From: Candidatus Hydrogenedens sp.
Lineage (GTDB): Bacteria; Hydrogenedentota; Hydrogenedentia; Hydrogenedentales; Hydrogenedentaceae
DNA: 64,000 nt
Assembly: GCA_049968235.1 (NCBI GenBank)
Contig: JBMFRC010000015.1
Location: forward strand, 1-64,000
Direction of reading: 5' to 3'
Each line of letters opens with the position of its first letter. Within the stretch, counting starts at the first letter, position 1. Both the position numbers and the translations under genes were made by a program. Shown piece after piece: positions 8,943 to 44,980 of this stretch. Below the pieces are notes generated by a model. That model made no database searches and had not been told where the DNA came from. It saw only the letters and a list, made by a program, of their open reading frames with translations.

Positions 8943-9104
8943 CGGTAAAAATAAAACTCCTTTTCGCTGTTATATTTCTTACATTTTGAGTAAATATTAT
9001 AACAAAAAAAGAAAATTTATTTCAAAGAACGAAGACAATTGTAAATGTGATATTATTAGTCAAAATTAGATATTTGAACTTTTGACCAATACTAAAGAAA
9101 TTTT

Positions 9105-10022: not shown

Positions 10023-10023
10023 A

Positions 10024-10674: not shown

Positions 10675-10676
10675 GA

Positions 10677-21409: not shown

Positions 21410-24400
21410 CTATTTAGCAGATAAGGTTCTCTGTTTTGAAGATGTTAAGATTTTAATAGAAGAAAAACATTTCATAAGTATATTGGATATATCTTCTGTG
21501 TAGGTGTAGAACAGTGGAACGACTACAAGCGTTAAGATTGTTCCTAAAATTAATCCTCCTACGAGGGCTTTTCCTAAACCTGAAAACATAACTGCACCTC
21601 CTGTTTTTGCGGTAGCTAATGGAACAAGTCCAAGAATAGTGGTTAATGCGGTCATCATCACCGGTCGGAGTCGGTCTTTACTTGCTTCAATGATTATATC
21701 TGTTAATTCTTTATTTTCTTTCTTCCGCAGGAAGTTAATATGGTCAACAATTACGATACCATTATTGACAATGACACCTACCATAAGGACGCAACCGATA
21801 AGAGTAATCATATCCCAATATGAATTTGTGAAGTAGAGTGTCCATGATGACCCGACAAGTGAAAGAGGAACGGTCGTTAAAATGACAAGAGGGAGAAGAA
21901 TGGATTCAAAAGTAGCACACATCACGATGTAAATTAATACGATAGCCATACTCATCGTTATTGCAAAATTAGTTAGATTCGTCTGTATTTCTTCTAACTC
22001 AATACCATAATTAAGGTTATATCCATCAGGTAATTCAAGACGAGATATGATTTCTGTTAAGTCTTTTTTTATACGGGTTAAGTCTTCTGTGTTCGCTTTT
22101 GCCCGAAAGTTAATAACATTCCTCCCATTATATCTTTTGACTACATCTGGTCCTGGTTTCCGTTCATAAGTTACTACTTGATGTAAAGGAATTAATCCTC
22201 CTTTACTGGAAATAACCATTAAATTATCTAAATTAGATTTAGTTTTTCTATCTTCCTCCTTATATTGAAGCCATACAGGTATTTCGCGTGTTCCCTCTTT
22301 TAAGTAGGGAAGTTGGGCTCCTCTCAATGCGGTATCAATGGTTTGGGCTATTGTAAAGGGATTAACTCCCTGTTCGTCTATTTGCCATTCGTTCATAGAT
22401 ACACGCATCTCCTGTTTTTTTTGTTCAACATCCATTGTTATATCTGTAAAGATGGGATTCTCTTGCAGTATGGATTTTATCCTTTGTGCTTGTTCATAAA
22501 GAATAGTATTATCTTTGCCTGTTAACCGTAAGGTTACTTCTCGTGATGTTCCAGATTCACCGGTATCTGCAATAGAGAATTCTAATTTTCCACCAGGAAT
22601 TTGAGAAGGTAAAGTATTTTTTACAATAGTCAAAGCCTCTTCTGTAGTACAAGGAGGATTTTCGCCAATTTCACCATCATCTTCTGTGTATAAATAAACA
22701 TGAATTTCTCCTCCATTATCTCCATGAAAAAGAAGAATATTTTTTATAGCAATGGCATCTCTAAGGGATTCCAATTTTTGTGAAAGTTGGTCAAATAAAT
22801 CTCTTACGCGGTTTGACTCAAAATTCTGGTCGAGAGTTACTTTTATATCTACTTCGCGTGTGTCTAATTTAATCAGGTCTTTCATACCTACGGATTTTAC
22901 AGGAATTAAATATGAGACTATTAAGAAGATAGATAAGCCAATAAGGAAAGATAATCTGTTTTTGAGAGACCATCTCAAACAAAGTTCTAATAAAAAGTAA
23001 ATTTTCTCTAATATTTTGAAACTTCCCGCTTTATCCCGGACAAAAATTAATATTTTACTTAGTGATATGAATATTTTGTTCTGCGAAATAATTTTATTTG
23101 AGGGGAATCCAAAATTTAATATCAGTGGAACAATAGTAAGAGCAATGACTAAACTTCCCAATAAAGCAACAATTAAAGGACCGCCTAATTGTTGCATAAA
23201 AATTGACATTCGTCCCGCTTCCAGATAATACATAGGCAGAAATACAACAATGGTTGTTAGTGTTGATGCCGAAATGGCTACTCCTACTTCAGATGCCCCC
23301 CGAGTAGAACTTGTCGTTTTATCATAACCTAACTGCTGATAACGGATGATATTTTCAACAACAACAATAGCATTGTCTACTAACATACCTACTGAAATAA
23401 TAAGGGATGCCATTGTTATTATATTGAGGGACATATCTGCAAAATACATAAAAATGATACCAATCATTAAAGAAGAGGGTATAGCAAAAGCAACAATAGT
23501 GGTAGGAATTATGCGATGTAAAAACAATAAAAGGACAATAAAAGCCATTATTCCACCATAAATCCCCTCTCCGAAAAGATTATTAAGTGCACGATTTATT
23601 AAGTCCGATTGGTCAAAAAATATTTTTGTTGAACTTCCGGAAAATGCATCTTCGGTTAGAATGTTATCCAGTTCTCTTTTAATACGGTCACAAACTGCTA
23701 CTGCATTCGCTTCCGATTCTTTTATCACTAATAGGACAACACCTCCTTTGCCATCCAGAGCTACCCGTTGAGACTTTTCACGAGAGCCAAATTGGACTGT
23801 AGCAATATCTTTCAATCGCATTCCATCTCTATTGATTACAAGATTTTCGATTTCTGAGAGGTTTCGGTACTCACCTGATAAACGAGCAAAGTATTTTCTA
23901 TTATTTTGAGTTACAGAACCGAGGGATATGTTTATAGATGAGGAACGAAGTGTATTAAGGAGAGAAACTATAGGGATGTTAAGGCTATTCAGTCGGTCTT
24001 GAGAAACCTCAATAAGTACTTCTTTTTCAGGAATGGGTGAGATTATTTGTATATCTGCAACTCCATCTAACCTTCTAAGACGGGGAATGAGAGATGTCCT
24101 GACCAGATACACATAATTTTCTTCATCGCCCGATTTAAAAAGACCAACTGCAAAGACAGGAATAGAACCTGAACTAAATCGTTGTATAATGATTCGTTGA
24201 ACTTCTTCCGGTAAAGTCATCTTTAATCGTTCTATACGGTCACGCACTTCTGCTGTTGCAAAAGTCATATCAGTATCAAGATTAAACCACATATTCACAG
24301 TACAACCATTGGAAGAACTGGTAGTTGCGATACTTCTTAACCCGGGGATAGTTCGAAATTCACCTTCTACGGGGATGGCTATTTGCTGTTCGACCTGTTC

Positions 24401-24574
24401 CGGCGAACCTCCGGGATATGGGATAAAACAACCTATGAAAGGACGGTCTACTTTAGGAAGGAATTTTAAAGGAATACGATACCACGAGATAACCCCTAAT
24501 ACCAGGATTGATATAGAAATCATAATCATAGTAATAGGTCGGTTAATGGCTAATTTGGGTAACGACCAATTCAT
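21410..24574 (-). CDS. RND efflux permease (HAE1/AcrB-MdtC family).
   Basis: The protein is 1054 aa with 12-TM architecture and two large periplasmic loops. The start codon directly abuts the stop codon of the upstream RND gene. Confidence 0.85.
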   Translation of the reverse strand: MNWSLPKLAINRPITMIMISISILVLGVISWYRIPLKFLPKVDRPFIGCFIPYPGGSPEQVEQQIAIPVEGEFRTIPGLRSIATTSSSNGCTVNMWFNLDTDMTFATAEVRDRIERLKMTLPEEVQRIIIQRFSSGSIPVFAVGLFKSGDEENYVYLVRTSLIPRLRRLDGVADIQIISPIPEKEVLIEVSQDRLNSLNIPIVSLLNTLRSSSINISLGSVTQNNRKYFARLSGEYRNLSEIENLVINRDGMRLKDIATVQFGSREKSQRVALDGKGGVVLLVIKESEANAVAVCDRIKRELDNILTEDAFSGSSTKIFFDQSDLINRALNNLFGEGIYGGIMAFIVLLLFLHRIIPTTIVAFAIPSSLMIGIIFMYFADMSLNIITMASLIISVGMLVDNAIVVVENIIRYQQLGYDKTTSSTRGASEVGVAISASTLTTIVVFLPMYYLEAGRMSIFMQQLGGPLIVALLGSLVIALTIVPLILNFGFPSNKIISQNKIFISLSKILIFVRDKAGSFKILEKIYFLLELCLRWSLKNRLSFLIGLSIFLIVSYLIPVKSVGMKDLIKLDTREVDIKVTLDQNFESNRVRDLFDQLSQKLESLRDAIAIKNILLFHGDNGGEIHVYLYTEDDGEIGENPPCTTEEALTIVKNTLPSQIPGGKLEFSIADTGESGTSREVTLRLTGKDNTILYEQAQRIKSILQENPIFTDITMDVEQKKQEMRVSMNEWQIDEQGVNPFTIAQTIDTALRGAQLPYLKEGTREIPVWLQYKEEDRKTKSNLDNLMVISSKGGLIPLHQVVTYERKPGPDVVKRYNGRNVINFRAKANTEDLTRIKKDLTEIISRLELPDGYNLNYGIELEEIQTNLTNFAITMSMAIVLIYIVMCATFESILLPLVILTTVPLSLVGSSWTLYFTNSYWDMITLIGCVLMVGVIVNNGIVIVDHINFLRKKENKELTDIIIEASKDRLRPVMMTALTTILGLVPLATAKTGGAVMFSGLGKALVGGLILGTILTLVVVPLFYTYTEDISNILMKCFSSIKILTSSKQRTLSAK

Positions 24575-27500
24575 TTATTTTCTTCCCCTGTGGAACATAC
24601 TCGAAAACATATAATTTGCCATAGGGATTATCCAGAGTGTTAGAAGAGTACTCGAAGAAAGTCCTGCCATAACAGTTAATGCCAGAGGTTGTCTTAATTC
24701 AGAACCTTCACCATGTGATAATAACATGGGCAGTAAACCGAGAACCGTTGTTAATGTTGTCATCAATATAGGTCTGAGACGAACCACCGCTGCCTGTACG
24801 ATAGCATCATGTGTAGAAAGCCCTCTTGAAACAAGTTGGTTGGTATAGTCAATTAGAACAATAGCATTGTTTACTACTATTCCTGCAAGAACTATAGAAC
24901 CTAAAAAAACCATTACATTTAAATTTGTATTTGTCCAGAATAGCACCAAGACAACACCAATAAAGGCAAGTGGAACAGAAAACATAATCAAGATAGGCAA
25001 CCAGATAGATTCAAATTGACATGCCATAACTACATAAACAAGAAAAACAGCTAACAATAATGCGAAACGTAAACTTTGATAGGAAGTTGATAGTTCACGA
25101 TTTTGACCACCAAGTGTAATAAAGAATTCGCGTGGTTTTTCTACTTCTCGTAATGATTCTAAAACTTCATTAGATACACTGGCTAAATCCCTTCCCTCAA
25201 TATTTGCTGTAATCAGGGCGACTCTTTTTTGCCCTATTCTTCGAATATCACTGGGTCCTGTATCCTCTATAATTCGGGCTACATCACAAAGACGAATGGG
25301 TGTTGTTCCTTCTACTATGGATAACTGCTTTAAGTCTTCTATGCTTTGTAAATAGGTTTGGTCTGTACGTACACGAATATCTATCTTGTCTCCTCCCCGA
25401 TTGAATTTGGTGGCAATTTCCCCTTGGATTTCTCTTCTTAATTTATTTGCTACTTCCATTGGAGTTAGCCCTTTTTCAGCAAGAAGTTCTCTATCCAACT
25501 GAATAAGTAGTTCAGGATACCCCGACTGTATAGAAATATCAGCATCTTTTATCCCCTTTATAACTTTTACTTTTTGAAGACATTTTCCGCCAACACTTTT
25601 TAATATGTTCAAATCATCACCAAAAATTTGGACTTCTAAATCGTTTTTCATTGTAAAGAGTGTAGGTAACGAAAAAACTATAGATTCCTCTGGAAGGGGT
25701 ACTATAGAAGAACGAATTTCATCAATAATTTTGTCTTGTATCCTTGCTGTTTGATTTCGATTTTTCAACAAAACAGTAAATGATGCTTTGTTTTCATTTT
25801 TCCCTTTACTTTCCGATTTGGAACTTTCAGTTCCCACCTGTAATGTAACTCGTTCAACTAAGGGATGCTCTTTAAGTACTTTTTCGATTCTTGATGCTTT
25901 TTGTAAAGTCTGTTCTAATTTAGTTCCTGCACGCGTTTCAAAAAGAATATTAAATTCCCCCTGTTTCATTGCAGGGATAACTTCCTGTCCAAGGGTGGGT
26001 AGTATCTTTAATGTGTAAATAAAAAGGACTACAGCAAGAAGTATGAAAATAGGTGAAAATTTCAAACTATAAGAAAGTGAAATTCTATAAAAATATTGAA
26101 AACTTTCAAATCCGATATGAAAGATTTGGAGGGGTATATAAAGTGTCCAATGGATAACTTTCTTCAAAATAAAAAACAGTATAAGTATGATGACAAAAAT
26201 AGGGAGAGAGAAAAGAATTGAGAAGAAGATGATGGGATAAAGAATAAAATTTAATATCAACCATGAAGTAAGTTTTAACAAAAGATTAAAAGGAAAGAAA
26301 ACAATTCTAATTATATCTTTGATTGTAGATTGTGAAAGTCTAAATTTGAATATATCAAGAAAATGTTTTTTAGATTTTCTAAAATGTCTTTTTATTATGA
26401 AGATTAAAGCATATAAAAACGAAGATATTGTCTTTTTCTGCTTTACATTTTTATAAAATAGAAATGTACGCACAGGATGGAAAATATATTGAGTATTTTC
26501 GGATATAAAGTGTGTTTTTGATACAACCAGTGGATTAAAGAATAAAGCAACAAACAATGAAGCAAGGAGTGAAAAGGTAACAGTTAATGCAAGGTCCCCA
26601 AAAATTTGTCCTGCTATCCCTTCTACAAAAGCCACCGGGAAAAATACCGCTACAGTCGTTAGTGTTGAAGCGATTACAGCAGAACTTACTTCTGATGTCC
26701 CGCGAATGGCAGAATCGACGACAGAATCTCCCTCTTCTCTACATCGAGCAATGCTTTCTAATACTACGATAGAATTATCCACTAACATACCGATACCTAA
26801 TGCAAGTCCTCCCAATGACATAATATTAAGAGAAATATCTCTCATGAACATGGGTATAAAAACGGTAATAATAGAAATAGGAATGGCAAAACCTATTGTA
26901 AGAGTACTTCGTAATTCACGAAGGAAAAGATAGAGAATGAGTAATGCTAATATACCTCCATTAATAGCAGAATTTTGAACTTCCTGTATAGAACTGATAA
27001 TAAACTGTGACTGGTCGCTAATGATATGAATTTTTGCATCAGCGGGGAGTGAACTAAGCAAATTCTTTTTCTTAAACAATTCTTTCCGTGATTTTGGGTC
27101 CTCAAGAGTATGTTGGCCATCAGCATCTTTAGCAACAGGTTGAAGTCCAAAGGACATCTGCTCATCTATTAATTCAGATAAACTTTTCTTCCTTTCAATT
27201 CCTAACAAATCTTTTATAAGATTACAAACTGTAACTGTATTTGAATCCCCTTCTTTGTAAATCTCTATTTCTATAGCATCTTCACCATTAATTCGGATAA
27301 TTGTATCTCTTTCTTTATTTCCCCACCGGACAGTAGCAACATCTTTTAATTTAATAGGAACTGATTTTTTCTGCACATTAGATATACTTTGAGAAGAAGT
27401 TGATAACGATTTTATGGGTAAATTGGATATCGGATTGGAATCCAGAGTAGGTATGCCAATAGATGAGGAAATAATTACATTTTTAATATCTTCAATATCC

Positions 27501-28255
27501 TTAAATTCTTTAAGGGTCCGCACAATATATTCCGTTTTCCCTTCAACTAATTTTCCCCCCGCAACATTAATATTCTGACTTGCCAGACTTTGAGTAATAT
27601 CATCTAATGACAATCCTAATGATTTAAGCATTTTGCTATCTACCAGAATTTGTATCTCTTCTTCCTGCCCTCCTTTTACTACAACCTGTGCAATCCCTGT
27701 TTCTGCCTCCAAATCACTTTTGAGTTTTCTTTGGACAGATTCGCGAAGTGTTGTTAAATATTCATTTTTTTCCTCTGAATCTAAATTATTTGGCGGAGTA
27801 ATTCCTACACGAATTACAGGGTCTAAATTTGGATTAAATCTTAGAATAACAGGTTTTTTAGTTACCTCTTTGGGTGGTTCAAATAAGTCCAATCGGTCAC
27901 GCACATCTTGTTGGGCAACATTCATATCTGTGTTCCAGAGGAATTCCAGAGTTATTTCAGAAAGTCCGACAGATGAAACACTACTAATTTCAACAAGTCC
28001 ACTAACAATACTTAACATTTCTTCAAGAGGACGAGTAACCAACTTTTCTACATCTTCGGGTGCTGCTCCCTCAAATTCTGTTTGTATGGTCAGAGAAGGA
28101 TATGAGATTTCAGGCATCAGATTAATAGGGAGTTTTTGATAAGAACGCCAACCGAAAACAATAATAGTAGTGAATATCATTAATGTTGTTACGGGACGGT
28201 ATATGGGAAAAGATATTAAGGACGATGTCGTTTGTTTTATTGGTTGTTCGCTCAC
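24575..28255 (-). CDS. RND efflux permease (AcrB/MdtB-like) with an atypical ~150-aa hydrophobic insertion between TM6 and TM7.
   Basis: The protein is 1226 aa and carries RND TM2-6 and TM8-12 blocks. There are extra hydrophobic segments after TM6 (...IVFFPFNLLLKLTSWLILNFILYPIIFFSILFSLPIFVIILILFFILKKV...). Confidence 0.8.
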   Translation of the reverse strand: MSEQPIKQTTSSLISFPIYRPVTTLMIFTTIIVFGWRSYQKLPINLMPEISYPSLTIQTEFEGAAPEDVEKLVTRPLEEMLSIVSGLVEISSVSSVGLSEITLEFLWNTDMNVAQQDVRDRLDLFEPPKEVTKKPVILRFNPNLDPVIRVGITPPNNLDSEEKNEYLTTLRESVQRKLKSDLEAETGIAQVVVKGGQEEEIQILVDSKMLKSLGLSLDDITQSLASQNINVAGGKLVEGKTEYIVRTLKEFKDIEDIKNVIISSSIGIPTLDSNPISNLPIKSLSTSSQSISNVQKKSVPIKLKDVATVRWGNKERDTIIRINGEDAIEIEIYKEGDSNTVTVCNLIKDLLGIERKKSLSELIDEQMSFGLQPVAKDADGQHTLEDPKSRKELFKKKNLLSSLPADAKIHIISDQSQFIISSIQEVQNSAINGGILALLILYLFLRELRSTLTIGFAIPISIITVFIPMFMRDISLNIMSLGGLALGIGMLVDNSIVVLESIARCREEGDSVVDSAIRGTSEVSSAVIASTLTTVAVFFPVAFVEGIAGQIFGDLALTVTFSLLASLFVALFFNPLVVSKTHFISENTQYIFHPVRTFLFYKNVKQKKTISSFLYALIFIIKRHFRKSKKHFLDIFKFRLSQSTIKDIIRIVFFPFNLLLKLTSWLILNFILYPIIFFSILFSLPIFVIILILFFILKKVIHWTLYIPLQIFHIGFESFQYFYRISLSYSLKFSPIFILLAVVLFIYTLKILPTLGQEVIPAMKQGEFNILFETRAGTKLEQTLQKASRIEKVLKEHPLVERVTLQVGTESSKSESKGKNENKASFTVLLKNRNQTARIQDKIIDEIRSSIVPLPEESIVFSLPTLFTMKNDLEVQIFGDDLNILKSVGGKCLQKVKVIKGIKDADISIQSGYPELLIQLDRELLAEKGLTPMEVANKLRREIQGEIATKFNRGGDKIDIRVRTDQTYLQSIEDLKQLSIVEGTTPIRLCDVARIIEDTGPSDIRRIGQKRVALITANIEGRDLASVSNEVLESLREVEKPREFFITLGGQNRELSTSYQSLRFALLLAVFLVYVVMACQFESIWLPILIMFSVPLAFIGVVLVLFWTNTNLNVMVFLGSIVLAGIVVNNAIVLIDYTNQLVSRGLSTHDAIVQAAVVRLRPILMTTLTTVLGLLPMLLSHGEGSELRQPLALTVMAGLSSSTLLTLWIIPMANYMFSSMFHRGRK

Positions 28256-28324
28256 GATTTCTCCCTACGGCTTTATTTAATGGATTTTACTTTTCTGAAA
28301 GGTAGAAATTTACATATAAGAAAT

Positions 28325-29500
28325 TCATGTATTTGATGTATTATTATCCGAATTCAGTATTTTTTCTAGTGATGTTACTTCAACAATAGAACCCGGCTTT
28401 AAATTCATTTGCCCTAAGGTAATTACAAGAGTATGTTCATCAATACCTTTTAATACTTCATAATAAGAACTATCTTCAAGACCGACCTGAATTTCTACTT
28501 TCTGTGCAGTAAATTGTATTGATTTGTTTTTAATTTCATTATAATCAAGTTTCTTTATATCTTCCGTATCTTTTGTTTGTGCCGTAAAAATATACTTTTT
28601 CCCACTTTCTTCTAAAACAGCATCTTTGGGTATAACAATTACCTGGGGGTGCACTTCCATGACCAGTTTTACTCTTGCAAATGCAGAATCTTTAATGCAG
28701 GTATTTTTGTCATTTTCAAGAAACTGCAGAGTCGTTTTTATTGTCCCGGATGAAGGGTCGATCGTAGGACTAATTCGGAATACAGTTGCGATAAAGTTTT
28801 CGGAAGGACAGGAATCAACTATAACTTCTGCTTTTTGATTTATATACACTCTGGAAATTTCGCGTTCAGGAATGTTTATTGGTAATACATAAGAATCCGG
28901 GTCCACAATAGAGAATACAGGCATGCCTGTACTTACCAGAACACCTTTCTGTATATTTTTTCGTGTGATTATTCCACTGATAGGTGCAGTTATGGTTTGA
29001 TTTTTTAATTGTAATTGTTGAATTTTAAGGGTGGCTTCCGCAGCGTCTAATGCAAAACGTGCATTATCTCTTTCTACTTTTGAACCAATACCTTCTTTCA
29101 AACTGTTTTCTGCAATTATAAGCGCAGATTTACATTTTTCAATATTTACCCTCGTTTGTAAAATTTGAGTTTCAACTTCTGATGTATCCAGTTTCGCTAA
29201 AATTTGTCCCTCTTTTGCATAATCTCCTTCTTCAACAAATATCTCTTCACAAATTCCCATCCCTTTAGATATTACATCTACTTTTTTTTCCGCCGTAATT
29301 CTTGTAGTAGTTTCAAAATATTTACTTATATCCTTTTTACTAGGGAATACTGCTTCAACGGGAGATGCCATTGGTTTGGTTGTATTTATTTGTGCATCAT
29401 CGTTCGCATCCACTTTTTTATTCAGTGAACAACTATGAATAAATAGCGTTCCTATAACTATTACGAACAATATCCCGAAATTATACAATCTTGTTTTCAT
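28325..29500 (-). CDS. RND efflux periplasmic adaptor (membrane fusion protein, HlyD/AcrA family).
   Basis: The protein has a lipoprotein-type N-terminus (LFIHSC) and coiled-coil, lipoyl and beta-barrel segments. It is 391 aa and lies directly upstream of the two RND permeases. Confidence 0.75.
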   Translation of the reverse strand: MKTRLYNFGILFVIVIGTLFIHSCSLNKKVDANDDAQINTTKPMASPVEAVFPSKKDISKYFETTTRITAEKKVDVISKGMGICEEIFVEEGDYAKEGQILAKLDTSEVETQILQTRVNIEKCKSALIIAENSLKEGIGSKVERDNARFALDAAEATLKIQQLQLKNQTITAPISGIITRKNIQKGVLVSTGMPVFSIVDPDSYVLPINIPEREISRVYINQKAEVIVDSCPSENFIATVFRISPTIDPSSGTIKTTLQFLENDKNTCIKDSAFARVKLVMEVHPQVIVIPKDAVLEESGKKYIFTAQTKDTEDIKKLDYNEIKNKSIQFTAQKVEIQVGLEDSSYYEVLKGIDEHTLVITLGQMNLKPGSIVEVTSLEKILNSDNNTSNT

Positions 29501-29776: not shown

Positions 29777-32700
29777 ATGAGAAAATCTGTATATTTTTTG
29801 TGTTTTCAAAGCATCCTATTTTTCACAATATTGTTGACAATTACAGGTTGTCCTCGAGAAGAAGTGGGAGGTTATTTAATTGTAGAACCGACATCGGTGG
29901 ATTTGGGTTCTAATGATGATAGTGCAGACATTCTGGTATGGAAAAATACAACGACCAGTTCTATAGGTCCAATTGTTGTTGAATCCCAAATTCCGTGGAT
30001 TTCTGTGGAAGGTTGTGCTACTGTTAATGATGAATGTTATAGTTTGGGACCTTTGGATAAAAAACGCATACGGATAAGAATAGACAGGGAAAAAACAGAC
30101 CTCGGACCTAATTCAGGAAATATAATCGTTCGGGCTACGAATGCTCCTTCAACAACGGTCCTGATAACTTTAATTGATTTAATAAAAGTGGATTTTGATG
30201 CTTCGAGTAAATTTACGACAGTAAACGAGGCAATTAGATTTTTTAATCAAAGTGCAGTTCAATCAGGGACTATACGAAAAGTAACATGGGATTTTGGAGA
30301 TGGTCAAACCTCTAATGATTATAATCCAACATATTTCTATCAGAAACCCGGTAATTATACAGTTACCTTGACTGTAGAGACTGATAAAGGTATTGAGAAA
30401 AGAGTAAAAGAGAATTTTATAAATGTAATTAGTGGTAACCTTACTGTTGATTTTTCTGCAAGTTCTCAGATAGTTCTATTGGGCGAGGAAGTTCAGTTAA
30501 TAGATAGAAGTCGTTCCGAAAAAGAAAATATTATTAATCGTTTCTGGGATTTCGGAGATGGAAAAACCAGTAATGAAGTAAATCCAAGGCATAAATATGA
30601 AAATCCTGGAATTTATTCCGTTACTTTAACTGTATATACAGAGAATCAAAATAAATCATTAACTAAAGAAGGGTATATAACTGTTCAAGAAGGTGTGCCT
30701 CCTAAAGCAAAATTCTCTGTTAGTCAAATCAAACCATTTATATATATTCCGGTTCAATTTTCTGATTTATCGGAAGCAGGAAGTTCGCCTATTACTGACT
30801 GGTTATGGGATTTTGGCGATGGAAACACTTCAACAGAACAAAATCCGCAATATGCGTTCACAAGGATTGGGAATCAGCAAATAAAATTAACAGTTAAGAA
30901 CAAGTTCGGTATTAGTTCCTTTTCACTGCCTGTAGAAGTTATTTATCTACCTCCTACCGCAGAATTTTCTGCTGAACCACTTGTTTTGTATGAAGGAGAA
31001 TCGGTTTTCTTTGCTGATTTATCCATAAAGGGGACAGAACGAATCATTCGCTGGTTGTGGAATTTTGGAGATGGTGGTACCGAGACCATAGAATATCAAC
31101 CCTATTCTCATGAGAATGGGAATACAAGATATGCCTATGCACAACCCGGTATTTATTCCGTATCTCTAACGGTAAATACAAGCACAACTTCAAATAATGA
31201 AAGTAGTATTACAAAAAGTTCTTATATTACAGTTCACAAACCACCTGTGCCCCAATTAAGTGTTTCTACAAGAAGCCCTGTAATACAGAAAGAAGTGCTT
31301 TTCCTCAATCGAACAGCAATAGGAACAGAGACAGAGTTGACTTTTGAATGGAATTTTGGCGATGGGTCTCCTGTCAAAACTATGAACACTACGGATTCTG
31401 TTTCACATATTTATTCAGAAGCCGGAGTTTATGATGTTACATTAAAGGTAAAAACGCCATTAAAAACATTCGAAAGTGAACCTGTTAAAGTTTATGTAGA
31501 TGCTCCACCTATTCCAGATTTTGAGTATACCCCCAAACGGATAACAGTAGAAGATTTAGTACAGTTTACGGATTTGTCTAACTCTGAAGGAACTCGACCT
31601 ATAATAGGTTGGGTATGGTCATTTGGCGATGGTTCTGGTGTATCAACCATGCAAAACCCAACACATCGCTTTGAAAGTCCCGGAAAATATAAAGTAGAGT
31701 TGTATTTAGTATTTACCCATTCCAAGAGTGGAGAGCAACTTAAAACATCTGCAGTTTCAAAAACATTGACCATCGGTTCTGCAATTCCTCCAACAGCCGG
31801 ATTTAAAATTGAAAGTCCTTGTGCCATTGTAGGAAGTGAAGTAAAGTTTTACGACCAATCAAAAACGGGAACAGCACCCATTGTCAGTTGGGAATGGGAT
31901 TTTGGTGATGGTGAAACTTCAAATGACCCATCACCAATACATGTATATTCTACTCCAGGAACTTATACCGTAAAATTAAAAGTTCAAACAGAAGGGGGAC
32001 TTGAATCAGAAGTCGTAAAACAAGATTGCATAGACGTAAGTAATTATGCAAGTCCTTTAGATATATTTGTAAGAGAACGCGACTCTGAATATACATGGAC
32101 AACGCCGGTAGAATATCCTGTAAATTATACCTCAGGTTCAGTTTCTATACGATTAGCGACCGCATATATAACGCGAATGACATCACAAGCCTGGCGCGAG
32201 GCAGATGATTTGTATAGTGGAAGAATATGGAAACATAATTTGGCCATTATTGTTCCAGAACGAAAACGAAATAATACCGCCTTATTATTCATTGATGGAG
32301 GTAACATCAATAGTAATCCACCTAATGAATCAGAAAGACTGTTCTTTGGTGAACTTGCCGCTTTATCCGGCTCTGTAATTGTTCATATAGACAATGTTCC
32401 TAACCAGCCTATTGTATTTATCGATGACTACGATGCAGAAAGGAATGTTATTCTTAAGTCGCGTACAGAGGATGACATTATTGCTTATAGTTATGACAAG
32501 TATATGAATGAATATAAGAATGGTAACGACGATTATCATTGGCCATTATTACTGGCAATGGCAAAATCTGCTGTCCGTGCTATGGATACAACCCAATTTA
32601 TATTGGAAGATAATGCACCATCGGAATTTATTATATCAGGAGGTTCGAAACGCGGATGGACTACATGGTTAACAGGATTAACAGACTGTCGTATAAAAGC

Positions 32701-34540
32701 AATAGCTCCACTTGTTATAGATGTCCTGAATATGGACAAGCAAATGGAACATCATAAAAATGTCTACGGTTATTGGGCACCTTCTATTTATGCCTATGCA
32801 CAGATGAAAGTTTTTGACAGACTTATTCCTGACGGCGGAAATCTGTTACCTGAAGCAGAGGCTCTTCTAAAACTTATAGACCCGTATGAGTATTTGGAAA
32901 GAATGCAGAATATTCCCAAGTTTATTTTAAATTCATCCTGCGATGAATTCTTTGTACCCGATTCTTCTTTATGGTATTTCAAGGATTTGTTGGGAGAGAA
33001 ATATCTAAATTATGTTCCTAATGTCTCTCATGGACTTGGGAATGAATTTAGTTTTGAGACAGATGCGGTGCAAAATTTGTTCGCATGGTTTTTAGCAAAA
33101 ACTCAAAATATTCAATTACCCACTTTCACATGGCAGAAGGTTACAAATGGAAATGCAAATACATTACAGGTGGTTGTAAATAGCCAGTTTACATCTTTAA
33201 TAAAAGAAGTAAAACTATGGCAATGCAATAATCCATATGCAAGAGATTTTAGAAAATACAAGATTGATAGCATTGGAGTTCAGTATCAAAGTGAAATATT
33301 ACAACCTGTAACCCCGGGCGTTTATCAAGCAACGGTAAATACCCCTTCACAGGGCTATACGGCGTATTTTATTCAGTTAACATTTAATAATCCAGCAAGA
33401 TTTCAAATGGCGGTTCCGGGGCTAACAGTTCCTTCATTAGTCTATACAACTTCTATTTATATCACTCCGGAAACTTATCCTGAATACACCTCGGAGAGAT
33501 ACACAAATTACAAATATCCATATTTAGTTCTTCGTGGTTCTCCTTACGAAATGGGTAGAGACTATGGAGATTTAATGAGAAATGAAATCATAAACCATGC
33601 TAATTATGTGTTGAGCAATTTAGGGAGATTTGGTGTTACTCAGACAAATCTTGATAACGCGTGGAGTATTCAACAAGGAAATCTTGATGAGAGAATACAA
33701 CAAGAATTGCAGGGTATTTCAGATAGCACAGGAATTAATTATGACGCATTAGGGAAACTGCAATTGGTTGAATGCCTGAGTCCGTATTCGACCACAAAAT
33801 CTTCGGGGTCTTTATTATGGTCAACGGCTACCAATATGCCTTCATTCTTCGATTACGCCCCATTAATTCAAACTTATTCATTAAATAGACAGTTGTATAA
33901 TGGTGGACAACAAACCTACCCGGTGGTTATATTTTATATACCTGAACATGGATTTCCCCATGTGTTATTCACTTTCGCCGGAATGGTTGTTAGTAGAGCA
34001 GGAGTTAATGTGGCAGGATTAACATATGGAGATATACCTGTATCTGGTGAAAGTGTCGTGCTGAATGAGAATATGCTAACTGCATTTCGTAGTGCAATGT
34101 ATGATGTCAATAGACTAAATTCACTTATAGAATGGACGGATATGTCTTCGTTAGGTAGATTGCACTCCTATTTATTAGGAGATGGAAGATACGAATTAAG
34201 AGGTGCAAAATATCTGGTCAAATCATCATCAAGGTTGTTAGTAAGAGATAATGATACAAATGATGATTATCGACCTAATATCTTACCAAATATTGTTTAT
34301 GATGCTGATACGGCAACGAGGGCAAATAATATTTATACATTAATCCGAGATAACTATGGACAATTAGTTATATCTGGGCTATATACCTTATCACAAAGGG
34401 GAGCCGTTGCTAATTCAAACTTGATGAATCTTGTAATTGATGCTACCGCTTTGAAGGGATATATTGCTGTTGCGAATGGGACACAAGGCGCCTCTACACA
34501 AACATTTGAAATCTATGATTTTCAATCTATTTTACCGTAA
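29777..34540 (+). CDS. Giant lipoprotein. It has an N-terminal Ig-like region, seven PKD domains, a central domain of uncertain family and a C-terminal peptidase-C45 (acyl-CoA:6-APA acyltransferase-like) Ntn-hydrolase-like domain.
   Basis: The tracked ORF starts at 29729. The lipoprotein signal MRKSVYFLCFQSILFFTILLTITGC begins at 29777. Seven W(D/N/S)FGDG PKD motifs are present. The C-terminal segment YLVLRGSPYEMGRDYGDLM...ECLSPYS parallels the N-terminus of C45/AAT proteins and a Cys-Thr/Ser nucleophile site. Confidence 0.6.
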   Translation: MRKSVYFLCFQSILFFTILLTITGCPREEVGGYLIVEPTSVDLGSNDDSADILVWKNTTTSSIGPIVVESQIPWISVEGCATVNDECYSLGPLDKKRIRIRIDREKTDLGPNSGNIIVRATNAPSTTVLITLIDLIKVDFDASSKFTTVNEAIRFFNQSAVQSGTIRKVTWDFGDGQTSNDYNPTYFYQKPGNYTVTLTVETDKGIEKRVKENFINVISGNLTVDFSASSQIVLLGEEVQLIDRSRSEKENIINRFWDFGDGKTSNEVNPRHKYENPGIYSVTLTVYTENQNKSLTKEGYITVQEGVPPKAKFSVSQIKPFIYIPVQFSDLSEAGSSPITDWLWDFGDGNTSTEQNPQYAFTRIGNQQIKLTVKNKFGISSFSLPVEVIYLPPTAEFSAEPLVLYEGESVFFADLSIKGTERIIRWLWNFGDGGTETIEYQPYSHENGNTRYAYAQPGIYSVSLTVNTSTTSNNESSITKSSYITVHKPPVPQLSVSTRSPVIQKEVLFLNRTAIGTETELTFEWNFGDGSPVKTMNTTDSVSHIYSEAGVYDVTLKVKTPLKTFESEPVKVYVDAPPIPDFEYTPKRITVEDLVQFTDLSNSEGTRPIIGWVWSFGDGSGVSTMQNPTHRFESPGKYKVELYLVFTHSKSGEQLKTSAVSKTLTIGSAIPPTAGFKIESPCAIVGSEVKFYDQSKTGTAPIVSWEWDFGDGETSNDPSPIHVYSTPGTYTVKLKVQTEGGLESEVVKQDCIDVSNYASPLDIFVRERDSEYTWTTPVEYPVNYTSGSVSIRLATAYITRMTSQAWREADDLYSGRIWKHNLAIIVPERKRNNTALLFIDGGNINSNPPNESERLFFGELAALSGSVIVHIDNVPNQPIVFIDDYDAERNVILKSRTEDDIIAYSYDKYMNEYKNGNDDYHWPLLLAMAKSAVRAMDTTQFILEDNAPSEFIISGGSKRGWTTWLTGLTDCRIKAIAPLVIDVLNMDKQMEHHKNVYGYWAPSIYAYAQMKVFDRLIPDGGNLLPEAEALLKLIDPYEYLERMQNIPKFILNSSCDEFFVPDSSLWYFKDLLGEKYLNYVPNVSHGLGNEFSFETDAVQNLFAWFLAKTQNIQLPTFTWQKVTNGNANTLQVVVNSQFTSLIKEVKLWQCNNPYARDFRKYKIDSIGVQYQSEILQPVTPGVYQATVNTPSQGYTAYFIQLTFNNPARFQMAVPGLTVPSLVYTTSIYITPETYPEYTSERYTNYKYPYLVLRGSPYEMGRDYGDLMRNEIINHANYVLSNLGRFGVTQTNLDNAWSIQQGNLDERIQQELQGISDSTGINYDALGKLQLVECLSPYSTTKSSGSLLWSTATNMPSFFDYAPLIQTYSLNRQLYNGGQQTYPVVIFYIPEHGFPHVLFTFAGMVVSRAGVNVAGLTYGDIPVSGESVVLNENMLTAFRSAMYDVNRLNSLIEWTDMSSLGRLHSYLLGDGRYELRGAKYLVKSSSRLLVRDNDTNDDYRPNILPNIVYDADTATRANNIYTLIRDNYGQLVISGLYTLSQRGAVANSNLMNLVIDATALKGYIAVANGTQGASTQTFEIYDFQSILP

Positions 34541-34599: not shown

Positions 34600-35598
34600 A
34601 TGACAGAATTAGTTAAATGTATTTCCCGTGGAAATAATGTTCTTGAAAAACTGAGTGAATTAAGAGGGAAAACTTTAGTCGTTTCAATGGATATCCCATG
34701 GAAAGGTGTTCAAAAATATATTTCATGGGAACCTACAGAGATTATCTGGGCACAGGAGATGGGATTAAATATTATTGAAAATCTGGAAAAGAAACTGGCT
34801 GATTTTGATTGGGTAGTCGGAATAGGTGGAGGCGTAAGTTGTGACCTCGCAAAGTATATTGCATGGAAGAGAAACATCCCATTAGTATTAGTTCCAACCA
34901 TAGTTTCTGTAGATGCCCCATTTACACCATCCATTGCAATAAGAGAAGATAATGTAGTCCGTTATATCGGAAACATTATCCCAAATCATATATTTGTAGA
35001 TTATCGAATAATTCAAGATGCTCCCCCTCATCTAAATAGGGCAGGAGTTGCAGACTTATTAAGTATTCATACTGCATTGTGGGATTGGAAGTGTTCCGCA
35101 GAGAATAACAACGAAAAATATGACGCCCAAATCGCCCATGAAGCAGAGGAATGTCTAATAGAAATAGATAAGATGGCAGAGGAAATATATAATGTTACCC
35201 CTCAAGGAATAGATACAATTGTGAATTTATATTGTAAAGAGGTAGAATTGTGCAATACATTTGGAAATGCACGACCCGAAGAAGGTTCCGAACATATTGT
35301 TGCCTATCATGTAGAGTATTTAACCAAAAGACAATTTCTACATGGAGATTTGGTAGGTATGGGTATTTTTTGTATGAGCAGATTACAGGAAAATAAAGTC
35401 GAATGGATAACGAATTTATTGAAAAGATGTGGTGTTAAATTTCAAGTTGATGGTTTATCAAAAGATGAAATATTACAAACTTTATTAGGGTTAAAAAAAT
35501 TTAAAGATGATACAGGATTATTTTATAGTGTAATTGATGTAAAAACGATTACAAATGAATTTGCAAACAATATATTAAATGAACTTAACTTAATATAA
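34600..35598 (+). CDS. sn-glycerol-1-phosphate dehydrogenase (AraM/EgsA)-like protein of the dehydroquinate-synthase-like / iron-ADH superfamily.
   Basis: VVGIGGGVSCDLAKYIAWKRNIPLVLVPTIVSVDAPFTPS matches the G1PDH motifs GGGxxxDxAKY and IPxxxVPTxxSxD. The protein is 332 aa. Confidence 0.5.
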   Translation: MTELVKCISRGNNVLEKLSELRGKTLVVSMDIPWKGVQKYISWEPTEIIWAQEMGLNIIENLEKKLADFDWVVGIGGGVSCDLAKYIAWKRNIPLVLVPTIVSVDAPFTPSIAIREDNVVRYIGNIIPNHIFVDYRIIQDAPPHLNRAGVADLLSIHTALWDWKCSAENNNEKYDAQIAHEAEECLIEIDKMAEEIYNVTPQGIDTIVNLYCKEVELCNTFGNARPEEGSEHIVAYHVEYLTKRQFLHGDLVGMGIFCMSRLQENKVEWITNLLKRCGVKFQVDGLSKDEILQTLLGLKKFKDDTGLFYSVIDVKTITNEFANNILNELNLI

Positions 35599-38050: not shown

Positions 38051-38962
38051 TTAACCAATAAAATATTGAAAATTCTTATCAATAAGAGGCTCTATATCTT
38101 TCTTATAGATAATCGGTTCACTCACTTCATTTTTATGTTGTTCCCAAAAAGATTTCCACTCTTCTATATTATCAATTTTTTTATTGTTTAATTCTATTTT
38201 CCACAGGTTATTTAATGCTTCTTTACTCGAATTGGCAATTCTTGGTTCTGGATGGCTAAGGTTTTCTATAAGAACAGGTGTTACAGATTTTAATCCTACA
38301 TGGGCTATTGCATAATTTGTTATGATACATACATCGATATCCGGGTCAACTAACCCACGAATAATTAAATTATAACTTTCTGTATCTTTTGCAATGGCTA
38401 AAAGTTCAATGGCTTTTCCACGTACTGTCGGTGCGGAATCAAGAATTTTATCTCTTAAAATTTTTATCGTTTTATCTTTATTTATCTTATATAAAATTTC
38501 TAAAATATGCGGTGTGATTGTAGGGGAATAAGAGGGAAGATAGTATTCTAAATAAGGGAAGATATCCATTGTTTTTTGAAGTTCTAATAATCCATTTTTA
38601 GCAGTAACACGGTCAACTTCTTCGCCCCATTGAATTCTACTAATTAGTGCTTCAACCTGTGCTCGTTGGTCTTTATTTAATCCCGTTTTTTCGGTAAGTA
38701 ATTTGTCTTTTTCTTCCCATTCCTTTTTTGCTTCATCTAAATTTATTTCACCTGTTTTATCGTTTTTTTGGATGTTAGCAATTTCGTCTTTTGTGTATTT
38801 AAATATTTTCTTCCCTACCTGTATCGTGTAAATTCCATCGGCTGATTCATCAACGATTTGCCCATCAAAAGTAATACCACTTTTTAAGGTAAAGGTATCT
38901 GGAAAAGTGAAAATACATATAAAAGACGCGAACAAAAAAGCAAAAATGAACCTTATACCCAT
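38051..38962 (-). CDS. HEAT/PBS-lyase-repeat protein with an N-terminal signal or anchor.
   Basis: HEAT-like repeats are present (for example PTVRGKAIELLAIAKD..., DPDIDVCIITNYAIAHVG, PEPRIANSSKEAL). The gene lies 33 nt downstream of the GspK-like gene on the same strand. Confidence 0.45.
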   Translation of the reverse strand: MGIRFIFAFLFASFICIFTFPDTFTLKSGITFDGQIVDESADGIYTIQVGKKIFKYTKDEIANIQKNDKTGEINLDEAKKEWEEKDKLLTEKTGLNKDQRAQVEALISRIQWGEEVDRVTAKNGLLELQKTMDIFPYLEYYLPSYSPTITPHILEILYKINKDKTIKILRDKILDSAPTVRGKAIELLAIAKDTESYNLIIRGLVDPDIDVCIITNYAIAHVGLKSVTPVLIENLSHPEPRIANSSKEALNNLWKIELNNKKIDNIEEWKSFWEQHKNEVSEPIIYKKDIEPLIDKNFQYFIG

Positions 38963-38995: not shown

Positions 38996-41326
38996 TTATT
39001 GGAAGTAGAATGCAATTTTTCTATAACTAACGACATTAGGGTCGGTAATTTCAAGAAATCTCCGTACACGCGGGTCATAATACATTGTTAAACCAATACC
39101 AACACCATTGTTCGCAGGAACAAATACTCCTAAATCTGCTGAGACTATACCACCACGAACAATCATTTTCCCGTATGTGTTGGAATTATGTCTTGTTTTA
39201 CTTCTCACGATACACCAGATAGAGTTGTTGCTATATAGAAGACCATCGAATTGGAATGGTCGCCCCGAATCGGGACGACTTAATTCATCTTTAAACCAGA
39301 TGCGCCGTAGAGTATCTTCGCTAATCCAGTTCATATCAGGATTACAATAGTGATAAGTAGCACGAGTTAAGATATCCAGTGGCAATCCTTTTTGAATTAG
39401 GTAATCACGTAGTAGTTTTACCCCGGCTTCGTTATACTTTACCGCATGTTCATCAGTTGCATCGTAAATATAAATTTTATCCGGTTGACTTGCCCGTAAG
39501 CCATAAAAACGAGGAGTATAATTGGGGTCTGCTAATGCTTTCTGTAATTCCATACGATTAAAAAGTTTTAATTCCGAGGTAGTGAAACTAAATTGTTGTC
39601 CTTTTCTTCCAGCCACAATTTGACCTGCATCTACTGAATCAGGGTCAAAATATCCCCAACGCAAAGTTTCTGTTACATTATTAATTGTCACCTTATTTGT
39701 TCTGTTTGCATTTCTGGTATCAATGCTATATTGAGTCCATAGGGGGTATTTTTCATTATTTCTTGCACTATGGTTAACACCACGAACGGTTAGGTAATCA
39801 CCAACCATAATACTTCCCCCTGCAACGAGTGCAAAGGCATTGGTAGTTCCATCTTCTGCTTTTCCAAATTCACCCGGAGCATCCGCATAGGTTACATCTC
39901 CAACAACATAAACATTTCCCCTTACCAGTAACTGTCCTTCACCTTTAATTTTACCTGCAATAACTAAATCTCCATTTACAGCAACGGTTCTTTCTATCTG
40001 TATGGGGTCTTGTTCCGTGCCGATAAGTATGAGATTACCATCATAAGTTCCTGTCGTTGATAGACTATTGATAGCAGAATTCGACGCGGTAGGTAATGGA
40101 TTATTTATATTCGCAGGTATATATACAGAACCACGAGGAACACCGTAGGCAACACCGGAAGTTATTTGTCCTGGTGGTGGGGCTTCTCCTTCTACTATTG
40201 TATTATCAAAATGAACTCTTCCATTGGCAGTATTCAAAACCACCTGGAATTCCTCATCATCAACAATTCGATTATTATTATCATCCGGAAATGGAGCCGG
40301 AAAGTTATTAGGCACGATCCCATCTGTTTGAGCTTGCTCATCCGTAGGATAATTCATATATAGGTTTGCAAATTGAACGAGGTCCCCATTAGGAGTTCTC
40401 CCTGCATTTTGTAAGTTTGTAATTATCATGTTCCCAGAAGAGTCTTGAACAATTTTACCATTGTTATTATTAATACGATATGATTTCAGAGTTGAACTTT
40501 GGAGTTCTGAAACAGAAAATGGGGTTCCATCAGGTTTATAAACACGACCTCTTGTATATAATGTACCTGCAGCACGACTATCTGCCTCTGTTGGTCTTAC
40601 TAACATAGATTCCAGAGATGCAACCTTAATACGGTCAAAAGTATTATAATTTGCAGGGTCAGTATTTCTAAACAAGTCTAAGGACTGAAATTCAGCATGA
40701 CATAGAATACAACTTATATTATTTGCAAGAACGGCAAATTCTGTATGAGGACTCGCTCTGCCCCCAATATTAACAACCTGAACCGCTGTTTTTGCAATAC
40801 CATTCCGTCTCGCAGTGGATGTTATTGTAAGGAATGAACGAGACCATTCATCATATCTTGCAATATGAACACTTTCAATTTGTGCTACTTCTTGGTTATT
40901 GTTAGGGTCCCTTAACACAATGGGTTGATTAATCAAAGCCCAACCTCTCCGGTCATATCCAGCAGGATAGGTTTCAAAAATACCGTTCCCATTTCCCGTT
41001 TCATCAATATCTTTGGTCCCATTAAAATTCAGGTCTTCATTTATTGGGATCCCTAAATTATTATCAAGATAGTACCGATAAGAAGCCCAATTTTTTGTTG
41101 TATTTCCACTTGTTTCTATATAATCGTCCCAGAGCCTTTTTAATGCTAGGTCTATACCTGCTTGCGATGCTTCCCTGAGAATAATATCATCTGCAGAAAA
41201 ATCCGTTTCTCTCTTGTTATTTACAACTATCGCGGAAATAACTCCTATAGCACCCAAAATTACAATTATAGAAATCGTGGTAAAAATTAACGCTATACCA
41301 GATTCTTTTTTTCTTACATTACGCAT
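38996..41326 (-). CDS. Large (776 aa) GspK-like minor pseudopilin or pilus-tip protein candidate.
   Basis: The N-terminus ESG|IALIFTTISIIVILGAIG is prepilin-like and lacks Glu+5, as in GspK. The gene is the third in an operon after two bona fide prepilin-type genes. The long C-terminal region is beta-rich. Confidence 0.4.
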   Translation of the reverse strand: MRNVRKKESGIALIFTTISIIVILGAIGVISAIVVNNKRETDFSADDIILREASQAGIDLALKRLWDDYIETSGNTTKNWASYRYYLDNNLGIPINEDLNFNGTKDIDETGNGNGIFETYPAGYDRRGWALINQPIVLRDPNNNQEVAQIESVHIARYDEWSRSFLTITSTARRNGIAKTAVQVVNIGGRASPHTEFAVLANNISCILCHAEFQSLDLFRNTDPANYNTFDRIKVASLESMLVRPTEADSRAAGTLYTRGRVYKPDGTPFSVSELQSSTLKSYRINNNNGKIVQDSSGNMIITNLQNAGRTPNGDLVQFANLYMNYPTDEQAQTDGIVPNNFPAPFPDDNNNRIVDDEEFQVVLNTANGRVHFDNTIVEGEAPPPGQITSGVAYGVPRGSVYIPANINNPLPTASNSAINSLSTTGTYDGNLILIGTEQDPIQIERTVAVNGDLVIAGKIKGEGQLLVRGNVYVVGDVTYADAPGEFGKAEDGTTNAFALVAGGSIMVGDYLTVRGVNHSARNNEKYPLWTQYSIDTRNANRTNKVTINNVTETLRWGYFDPDSVDAGQIVAGRKGQQFSFTTSELKLFNRMELQKALADPNYTPRFYGLRASQPDKIYIYDATDEHAVKYNEAGVKLLRDYLIQKGLPLDILTRATYHYCNPDMNWISEDTLRRIWFKDELSRPDSGRPFQFDGLLYSNNSIWCIVRSKTRHNSNTYGKMIVRGGIVSADLGVFVPANNGVGIGLTMYYDPRVRRFLEITDPNVVSYRKIAFYFQ

Positions 41327-43836: not shown

Positions 43837-43876
43837 AGATAATGTACTCCTGATAGTAGATTGAGATTAGAAATAT

Positions 43877-44980
43877 TTATATGATGGCTTGTTCTGTTAC
43901 AGGGTCAAAAAAATGAATTTTTTCAATGTTTATATTTACAATAAAAGGTTCACCTATAGAGGGCTCTTTATCTAACTTCAGTTTTGCTGTAATCGTATTC
44001 ATTCCAGTATTTAAGTACAGATTCATTTCAGAGCCCATAGGTTCAACCACATCAACAATTGCTGATATTGAAATACCTTTTTGAGGGGTTTGACTTTGAT
44101 TAATTATAAAATCTTCTGGGCGAATACCTAAAATTGTTTTTTGATTAATAAAATTTTTTAGATGTTCTTGTAAATTCTCTGGGACAAGAATCTCGATATT
44201 TTTATTATCAGAAAAATATAACTTTTCGTCTTGAAATATAATACTGCCTTCAATCATATTCATAGGTGGACTTCCTATAAAACCTGCCACAAATTTATTT
44301 ACAGGCTTGTTATACAATTCCAGAGGAGTTCCTATTTGCTGAACCGTCCCATTATTCATAACAACAATACGGTCACCCATTGTCATGGCTTCAATTTGGT
44401 CATGGGTTACATAAATAATGGTGGCTTTTAATTGATGGTGTAATTTTGATATTTCTGCACGCATCTGGACGCGCATTTTAGCATCCAGATTGGAAAGAGG
44501 TTCATCAAAAAGGAAAACTTTCGGATTACGAACAATGGCTCTACCCACCGCAACTCTTTGTCTTTGTCCTCCAGAAAGAACTCTTGGTTTAGCATTTAAA
44601 TACTCAGTCAGACCTAATATCTCAGCTGCTTCTCGAACTCGTTTATCAATCTCTTGTCTGGAGACCCCTCTCAACATTAAACCAAATGCCATGTTTTTAT
44701 ACACTGTCATATGCGGATATAACGCATAATTTTGAAAAACCATAGCAATATCACGGTCTTTGGGGTGAACATTATTTACCAATTTACCATCAATTAAAAT
44801 ATTCCCAGAACTAATTTCTTCAAGACCCGCCACCATCCGTAATGTTGTCGTTTTCCCACACCCCGAAGGTCCTACAAGCACAACAAACTCTGTATCCTCT
44901 ATTGTTATTGTTACATCTTTCACTGCGATAAAACCATTGGGATAAATTTTCGTTAAATGTATTAATTCAACTTTTGCCAT
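43877..44980 (-). CDS. Sugar ABC transporter ATP-binding protein (MalK/UgpC/MsmK family) with a C-terminal TOBE domain.
   Basis: Walker [10 protein letters not shown], the signature LSGGQRQR and Walker [12 protein letters not shown] are present in a 367-aa protein. No cognate permease was found in the window. Confidence 0.85.

Follow-up and report, generated by a model that had tools for sequence, protein, structure and literature searches.

Background

Acyl-CoA:isopenicillin N acyltransferase (IAT, also AAT) of Penicillium chrysogenum, a member of family C45 (PF03417) with the structures 2X1C, 2X1D and 2X1E, is a free peroxisomal heterodimer. The family PF10142 (PhoPQ_related), which is MEROPS family S82 and has been called barely characterised (PMC11878206), includes Dictyostelium AprA, a studied member with DPPIV-like protease activity and the only one for which serine-peptidase activity is reported (PMC8326840). 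In the present analysis, we examined a stretch of 64,000 nucleotides from Candidatus Hydrogenedens sp. (assembly GCA_049968235.1, contig JBMFRC010000015.1, positions 1 to 64,000; hereafter, the window), in which one gene encodes a predicted lipoprotein with an S82 module and a C45-like domain behind an array of PKD domains (Table 1). The explanation that we prefer, with a probability of roughly 0.65, is that the product is a lipid-anchored, probably surface-located, PKD-stalked S82 hydrolase that carries a non-catalytic C45 pseudoenzyme domain. Our literature searches turned up no account of an S82-C45 fusion, nor of a family with PKD domains, S82 and a C45-like domain (PKD+S82+C45-like; hereafter, the clade). 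All residue numbers of the lipoprotein were counted from the ATG codon at 29777.

Homology of the C-terminal domain to C45 hydrolases

A first-pass annotation of the gene had placed a C45-like autoproteolytic N-terminal nucleophile (Ntn) hydrolase at the end of the protein, with a self-cleavage Cys in ECLSPYS, and both YLVLRGSPYEMGRDYG and ECLSPYS were found in the C-terminal domain. The direct search with Pfam PF03417 gave no match in the lipoprotein, even at E ≤ 10, and a single-sequence search of the PDB with the C-terminal 371 aa gave nothing meaningful. The NCBIfam profile NF040521 (C45_proenzyme) matched with 36.3-40.9 bits (E = 4e-9 to 1.6e-10), which is under the cutoff of 85, and only the first half of the profile was covered. 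When a profile constructed from 21 clade members was compared with the whole PDB, one family only was obtained, that of P. chrysogenum IAT (2x1c, 2x1d and 2x1e; E = 3e-8), and in this comparison YLVLRGSPYEMGRDYG was aligned with IAT residues 4-18, ILCQGTPFEIGYEHG. PF03417 was above the gathering score in relatives with the S82-C45 arrangement (58 bits in P0011, 37.7 bits in P0088 and 30 bits in P0008), and the C45-like domain of the lipoprotein matched the second of the two tandem C45 copies in relatives with phmmer E values of about 1e-40 to 1e-46.

Structure prediction was performed with AlphaFold2 for residues 770-1587. A 2-sequence alignment gave a predicted local distance difference test score (pLDDT) of 31, and a 60-sequence alignment, which gave a pLDDT of 93.7 and a predicted template modelling score (pTM) of 0.88, was used instead. 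The best PDB matches of the C45-like domain with Foldseek were the precursor and mature forms of IAT (E = 1.5e-14; TM-score of the target (TMt), 0.69-0.72), and the Ntn fold expected of the C-terminal region was thus seen in the model. As judged from the clade profile and the predicted structure, the C-terminal 344 aa are homologous to the C45 Ntn hydrolases, with a predicted alpha-beta-beta-alpha fold preceded by an N-terminal pro-region. The earlier proposal was borne out as far as the fold is concerned, whereas its active enzyme was not, since the nucleophile, the Arg and the Asp are gone (see below).

Loss of the catalytic residues in the C45-like domain

The canonical active-site columns were tabulated with hmmalign over 140 aligned C45 domains from the matching proteins, in which C-[ST]...R-x-x-D-[WYF]...N was regarded as intact. 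The column of IAT residue 103 was regarded as that of the nucleophile, because the precursor entry (2x1c, Ala) and the mature entry (2x1d, Cys) differ only at this residue. The Arg/Asp pair of the R-N-x-D-W motif was taken to be equivalent to Arg18/Asp21 of the choloylglycine hydrolases and, for the Asp, to Asp121 of IAT. Note that the nucleophile column of the closest subclade was misplaced by hmmalign owing to a 5-residue insertion; it was corrected by using the +6 spacing to the conserved Trp and the start of the model strand.

With this correction, the nucleophile column of the lipoprotein holds Ser1342, which is at +6 to the conserved Trp, as is the Cys of GC-SLFAAW in the intact domains, and which starts model strand E572-579. 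This column varies between relatives: P0122 (the 84% identical orthologue) and P0002 have Ala there, P0003 has Ser and P0001 has Cys, and most of the others have Gly or Ala. Of the 29 proteins of the PKD+S82+C45 architecture, 28 have one of Gly, Ala, Ser and Thr in it. The R/N/D/W residues of the second motif are replaced by Y/S/N/R in the lipoprotein (Tyr1367 for the Arg and Asn1370 for the Asp). They are on model strand E594-601, which pairs with the nucleophile strand in a hairpin, and throughout the clade both the Arg and the Asp are gone. The only canonical active-site residue that is kept is Asn1411, which is invariant in the 21-sequence alignment of the degenerate clade (N178); of the 140 domains tabulated, nearly all have Asn in this column. 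Cys, Arg and Asp were all present in 1 of the 29 PKD+S82 domains, in 29 of the 38 domains of S82 fusions without PKD, and in 59 of the 73 domains of other matching proteins (no S82 detected), and all three were lost in the remaining 28 PKD+S82+C45 proteins. The single intact PKD+S82 member is P0138, and because its site is intact, the PKD+S82 architecture is considered to be older than the catalytic loss, and its ancestor to have been active.

An active C45 amidohydrolase or acyltransferase that cleaves itself before Cys1333, between E and CLSPYS, would agree with the genuine C45 homology, and Cys1333 is about 80 residues into the domain, roughly as is Cys103 in IAT. However, the nucleophile column of all intact homologues comes 9 residues after Cys1333, which is at the end of model helix H553-565, not at the start of the central beta-strand; at the position of Cys1333, P0122 has Trp, and P0001, P0002 and P0003 have Leu. 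In addition, the Arg and Asp are replaced by Tyr and Asn. We regard this explanation as extremely improbable: there is no conserved nucleophile at the cleavage site that had been proposed, so the enzymatic interpretation of the first-pass annotation fails, while that of the fold stands. A second alternative is a non-canonical Ser-Ntn hydrolase, in which Ser1342 (Cys in P0001) would act as the nucleophile after cleavage between K1341 and S1342 without the Arg/Asp pair. However, P0002 and an orthologue of 84% identity have Ala in this column, and most of the clade has Gly or Ala, so that the column is not under selection for a nucleophile; the Arg and Asp are gone in all of the clade, and replacement of Cys by Ser at the nucleophile of IAT blocks the processing. 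This alternative is highly unlikely. We consider that the C45-like domain is a pseudoenzyme, probably a non-catalytic partner rather than a second enzyme, and that it is predicted not to be cleaved autoproteolytically into alpha and beta chains.

The S82 hydrolase module

The central domain had been suggested, without verification, to be of the PhoPQ-activated type, and the search with PF10142 made this unambiguous: residues 788-1159 matched profile positions 19-367 of 367 with 321.1 bits (gathering score, 20.3; E = 9.4e-96). The nucleophile-elbow motif is SGGSKRGWTTW, in which Ser957 is the Ser of GGS957KRGW. Ser957, Asp1056 and His1085 are each at least 90% conserved in the 60-sequence alignment, and their places in the model, after strands E181-187, E279-284 and E306-311, are the canonical ones of the elbow, acid and base, respectively. 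The sequence is therefore that of an S82 domain with an intact catalytic triad, and this triad is, on the same evidence, the only intact catalytic centre predicted in the head of the lipoprotein. A single-sequence search of the PDB with the S82 region gave nothing meaningful, and by this route we found no structure that had been solved for the family.

The Foldseek neighbours of the S82 module were CE7 esterases and S9 peptidases. An alternative to a peptidase, which we regard as unlikely but worth keeping in mind, is a carbohydrate or acetyl esterase whose partners would be the glycan-utilisation genes nearby; the CE7 neighbours would agree with it, the S9 neighbours and the DPPIV-like activity of AprA with a peptidase.

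Selection on the degenerate domain

The number of nonsynonymous substitutions per site (dN) was estimated by the Nei-Gojobori method against the 85% identical orthologue of L005 and was 0.112 for the C45-like domain, 0.069 for the S82 module and 0.087 for the PKD array. The ratio of dN to the number of synonymous substitutions per site (dS) was about 0.05, with dS of about 1.3-2.0, which is near saturation, so that the ratios are rough. Across the 21 clade members, with a mean identity of 34%, 16 columns of the C45-like domain are invariant, including GDGR, N-x-x-N and the extreme C-terminus. As judged from these sequence comparisons, the C45-like domain is under purifying selection.

These values also bear on the proposal that both domains of the head are without catalytic activity and that the protein has only a structural role at the surface, as an adhesin or in the manner of an S-layer protein. 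The long PKD array and the lipid anchor would fit such a protein, as would the clear degeneration of one of the two enzyme-derived domains; against it, conservation is at least 90% for the triad of S82 as well as for its GGSKRGW elbow, and the S82 module is the slowest-evolving part of the lipoprotein. Such a structural protein is very improbable.

As a separate observation, the last 7 codons (window positions 34517-34537) encode a tail of the form [DN]-[LMF]-Q-x-[LIF]-[LM]-P-COOH, which was found in essentially all members of the clade (P0004-P0020 and P0122-P0180, including P0138, in which the site is intact). The tail has either a structural role or that of a so far unrecognised signal for sorting, and in the lipoprotein the ...Q-x-L-L-P-COOH end could be part of the interface between the S82 and C45-like domains or a new sorting signal.

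Relatives and distribution of the fusion

The closest relatives are in metagenome-assembled genomes of Candidatus Hydrogenedentota (L005, 85% identical; L006 and P0002, 62-63%). P0122 is an orthologue of 1589 aa, and both it and L005 are collinear with the lipoprotein over the full length. A word-indexed homologue search with the C-terminal domain by itself gave one relative only; the same search with the S82 and C-terminal domains gave many proteins with about 96-100% query coverage, several of them with a precomputed PF03417 beside PF10142. By an exhaustive search of representatives, 279 were obtained at E ≤ 1e-3. The architecture with seven PKD domains, S82 and the C45-like domain (about 1550-1650 aa) forms at least 10 clusters at 50% identity, and domain mapping gave further architectures, namely versions with four PKD domains, S82-C45-C45, S82-C45, and the reversed C45-S82 (P0195 and P0234). 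The fusion had been thought unusual, but it is not a single occurrence: dozens of clusters at 50% identity contain S82-C45 fusions. This recurrence shows the link of S82 and C45 to be evolutionarily robust and speaks for a functional coupling between the folds.

Several further observations were made on these relatives. Two tandem, apparently intact C45 domains follow S82 in the non-PKD proteins P0008, P0011, P0012, P0014, P0016, P0018, P0022-P0024, P0126 and P0129, and some non-PKD relatives run on into TSP3 or SprB repeat regions. In GCA_017880035.1 (L002), the gene calls divide the orthologue into two genes that overlap, 6926-8047 (a 373-aa PKD protein) and 8001-11708 (the 1235-aa P0002); the split is probably a frameshift or an assembly error in one gene of about 1600 aa. 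In L006, a stop-free frame of 1593 codons is likewise called only in part, as P0003 (797 aa). A 75% identical fragment of the lipoprotein gene is on a contig of 7.6 kb (L007; CAZZMK010000306.1) binned as 'uncultured Nitrospirales', while all other close relatives are from Hydrogenedentota, and the label is probably a binning error rather than a sign of horizontal transfer.

Gene, N-terminus and PKD stalk

The open reading frame (ORF) of the lipoprotein is real. GGAGAAATTTAT precedes the ATG at 29777, and the distance from this codon to its ribosome-binding site, GGAG, is 8 nt. The length of 1603 aa that had been given from 29777 needs correction, since the protein is of 1587 aa from that ATG and of 1603 aa only from an upstream TTG at 29729, the mechanical start of the ORF. 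The N-terminus is MRKSVYFLCFQSILFFTILLTITG followed by C25, and its lipobox, I-T-G-C25, fits [LVI][ASTVI][GAS]C. An L-x-G-C lipobox is kept in every inspected N-terminus of the PKD+S82+C45-like homologues, and in the inspected N-termini of S82-only proteins there is an AxA-type signal in its place. The lipobox-anchored N-terminus noted earlier is thus present and is a feature of the whole clade, and the protein is predicted from its sequence to be a lipoprotein of the signal peptidase II type, lipidated at Cys25.

The domain of residues 26-139 had no match in Pfam at E ≤ 10, and a '...LLVSP..LDFG' motif in it is kept among the homologues. Behind it, PF18911 (E = 6.7e-100) and PF00801 (E = 8.6e-73) each matched in seven PKD stretches, and W[DNS]FGDG motifs are present exactly seven times, at residues 171, 257, 344, 428, 525, 614 and 707 (nt 30287-31895), so that the count of seven PKD domains made from the motifs agrees with Pfam.

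Table 1. Features of the lipoprotein gene and of the adjacent genes in the window
Feature	Position (nt)	Strand	Basis or comment
Whole lipoprotein gene, 1587 aa	29777..34540, stop included	+	ATG start; ORF list and translation
Signal peptide and lipobox (LLTITG, then C25)	29777..29851	+	Read from the sequence
N-terminal domain, residues 26-139	29852..30193	+	No family assignment
Seven-PKD array, residues ~140-760	30194..32056	+	PF18911 and PF00801, 7 stretches each
S82/PhoPQ_related alpha/beta-hydrolase module including the C-terminal beta-sandwich, residues 771-1243	32087..33505	+	PF10142
S82 triad, S957, D1056 and H1085 (predicted)	32645-32647; 32942-32944; 33029-33031	+	
C45-like Ntn-fold domain, residues 1244-1587 (344 aa), catalytically degenerate	33506..34537	+	
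Cys1333 (ECLSPYS), nucleophile proposed earlier	33773..33775	+	Not the nucleophile position
Ser1342, canonical Ntn nucleophile column (K-S-SGSLLW)	33800..33802	+	Spacing and strand start
Degenerate R-N-x-D-W motif, Y1367-S-L-N1370-R1371	33875..33889	+	hmmalign column table
Asn1411 (G-V-N-V-A-G), oxyanion-hole Asn column	34007..34009	+	Alignment
Fe-ADH_2 / G1PDH-like gene, downstream, co-oriented	34600..35598	+	PF13685
Divergent RND efflux operon, MFP and two AcrB-like genes	21410..29500	-	Pfam HlyD_D23 and ACR_tran x2

Gene neighbourhood

The gene downstream is of the Fe-ADH_2 family, and its best NCBIfam match was NAD(P)-dependent glycerol-1-phosphate dehydrogenase (G1PDH), with 131 bits, under the cutoff of 413. 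It follows the lipoprotein gene after a gap of 59 nt with no terminator-like site, and the two are probably co-transcribed. An Fe-ADH_2 gene of 331-334 aa is downstream and co-oriented in three lineages (the window; L002, 11800-12804; L012, 12007-13002, where the homologue of the lipoprotein is 37% identical). The G1PDH-like gene may be an operon partner of the surface hydrolase. Upstream, the divergent resistance-nodulation-division (RND) efflux operon, absent from the first-pass annotation and with a membrane fusion protein (MFP) gene, contains tandem AcrB-like genes of 1226 and 1054 aa, the former of which matches the Pfam profile in 4 stretches, and no gene for an outer-membrane factor was seen beside the operon. 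The divergent operon recurs in L002 (1-6666) and L011 (1-7434; the locus of the 35% identical P0013). Promoter-like matches in the upstream intergenic region were no more than the shuffled expectation.

The gene order of L002 is as in the window: divergent RND operon, PKD-S82 gene, Fe-ADH_2, GH78-like and HEAT. The glycan-utilisation neighbourhood pointed out earlier, with G1PDH-like and GH78 genes adjoining, is correct in that both genes are downstream, but the linkage to GH78 is kept only among close relatives, and Fe-ADH_2 and the RND operon, each found in three lineages, are absent in others. The neighbourhood was considered as a clue to function and rejected, because it does not generalise to the lineages with different neighbours.

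The window also carries GH78-like, GH36-like, GH116, galactokinase and MalK genes; galactokinase, a MalK-type ABC ATPase, a melibiase/GH36-like protein (800 aa) and a GH116-like protein (1276 aa) are encoded in 42661-44980, 51857-54259 and 56138-59968. An ORF of 776 aa at 38996-41326 (minus strand), with no Pfam or meaningful NCBIfam match, adjoins the gene for a 303-aa HEAT-repeat protein at 38051-38962 (minus strand), and a HEAT_2 gene is at the same relative position in L002. In L009/L010, a 1090-aa gene of the penicillin amidase family (PF01804; 1650-4922), another Ntn hydrolase, is near the homologue P0015, and the P0015 locus has Inositol_P and DJ-1/PfpI genes upstream and a DUF3748/PD40 gene downstream, an arrangement partly common to the P0009 and P0010 loci.

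Proposed explanation

In the explanation that we prefer, the precursor would be processed by signal peptidase II and lipidated at Cys25, and the N-terminal domain and the seven PKD domains would form a long stalk that holds the two-domain head off the membrane. With Ser957 as the nucleophile, the S82 site would hydrolyse a peptide (amide) or ester outside the cell through the usual acyl-enzyme route. The C45-like domain would descend from an active C45 Ntn acyltransferase or amidase that was fused to S82 hydrolases before the PKD clade arose, after which the nucleophile Cys would have disappeared from the domain of the clade, together with the Arg and Asp of the R-N-x-D-W motif. Because the pTM was 0.88 over the 818-residue segment, the S82 and C45-like domains are inferred to be rigidly packed in a fixed mutual orientation, and the uncleaved, proenzyme-like pseudoenzyme may then serve for substrate binding or positioning, or as a structural support of S82.

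The following points weigh against this explanation. The nucleophile column is Ser in the lipoprotein and Cys in P0001, and a non-canonical Ser/Cys-Ntn activity is a slight possibility in this small subclade. The dN/dS values are rough, and the packing of the domains is read from the pTM. We know of no biochemical data on any bacterial S82 protein or on any member of the clade, and, to our knowledge, the surface versus periplasmic placing of lipoproteins is not established for Hydrogenedentota.

A wider proposal, which we put forward tentatively and consider possible rather than probable, is that S82 and C45 Ntn domains belong together in a so far undescribed cassette of two enzymes, which recurs in either order, often with a second C45 domain, and whose substrates are a single class of extracellular amides or peptides. 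In the Hydrogenedentota clade, the Ntn partner would then have become a permanently uncleaved, proenzyme-like pseudoenzyme that serves S82 as a built-in module for substrate binding or gating.

If the preferred explanation is correct, the protein should be annotated not as a surface C45 amidase or acyltransferase but as one whose engine is a barely characterised S82 hydrolase of the PqaA/AprA type. It would also be a natural pseudoenzyme of the Ntn hydrolases that is kept in a whole clade of which active ancestors and sisters survive, and the comparison of P0138 and P0011 with the lipoprotein would be a clean one for the role of an uncleaved, non-catalytic Ntn fold. The clade may further provide a lead on the substrates of bacterial S82 enzymes. 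The interest is that of the specialist, and no long-standing question is resolved.

Comparison with known systems

The lipoprotein resembles the PhoPQ-activated pathogenicity-related protein PqaA and Dictyostelium AprA in the full-length match to PF10142 and in the predicted Ser-Asp-His triad. The typical bacterial S82 protein is, however, a secreted single module of about 455 aa with a signal of the signal peptidase I (SPI) type and ends after the beta-sandwich, whereas the module of the Hydrogenedentota protein is set between a PKD stalk and a pseudo-Ntn domain in a lipoprotein of 1587 aa. The metagenome S82-C45(-C45) fusions (P0011, P0008, P0088 and P0126) have the same S82 module followed by one or more homologous C45 domains; they keep C-S...R-[ND]-x-D-W in both copies and have an SPI-type signal, no PKD stalk and often two C45 domains, whereas the lipoprotein has a single dead copy.

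The identity of the lipoprotein domain to IAT is 10-12%. The column of IAT Cys103 is Ser1342, and the equivalent of IAT D121 is Asn1370. Unlike IAT, the domain is fused to S82 and a PKD stalk, lipid-anchored (as predicted) and probably unprocessed. Uncleaved precursors of acid ceramidase and NAAA have been described (5U84 and 6DXW), but these are engineered Cys-to-Ala forms of active lysosomal enzymes, whereas the loss of the nucleophile in the clade of the lipoprotein is natural and clade-wide.

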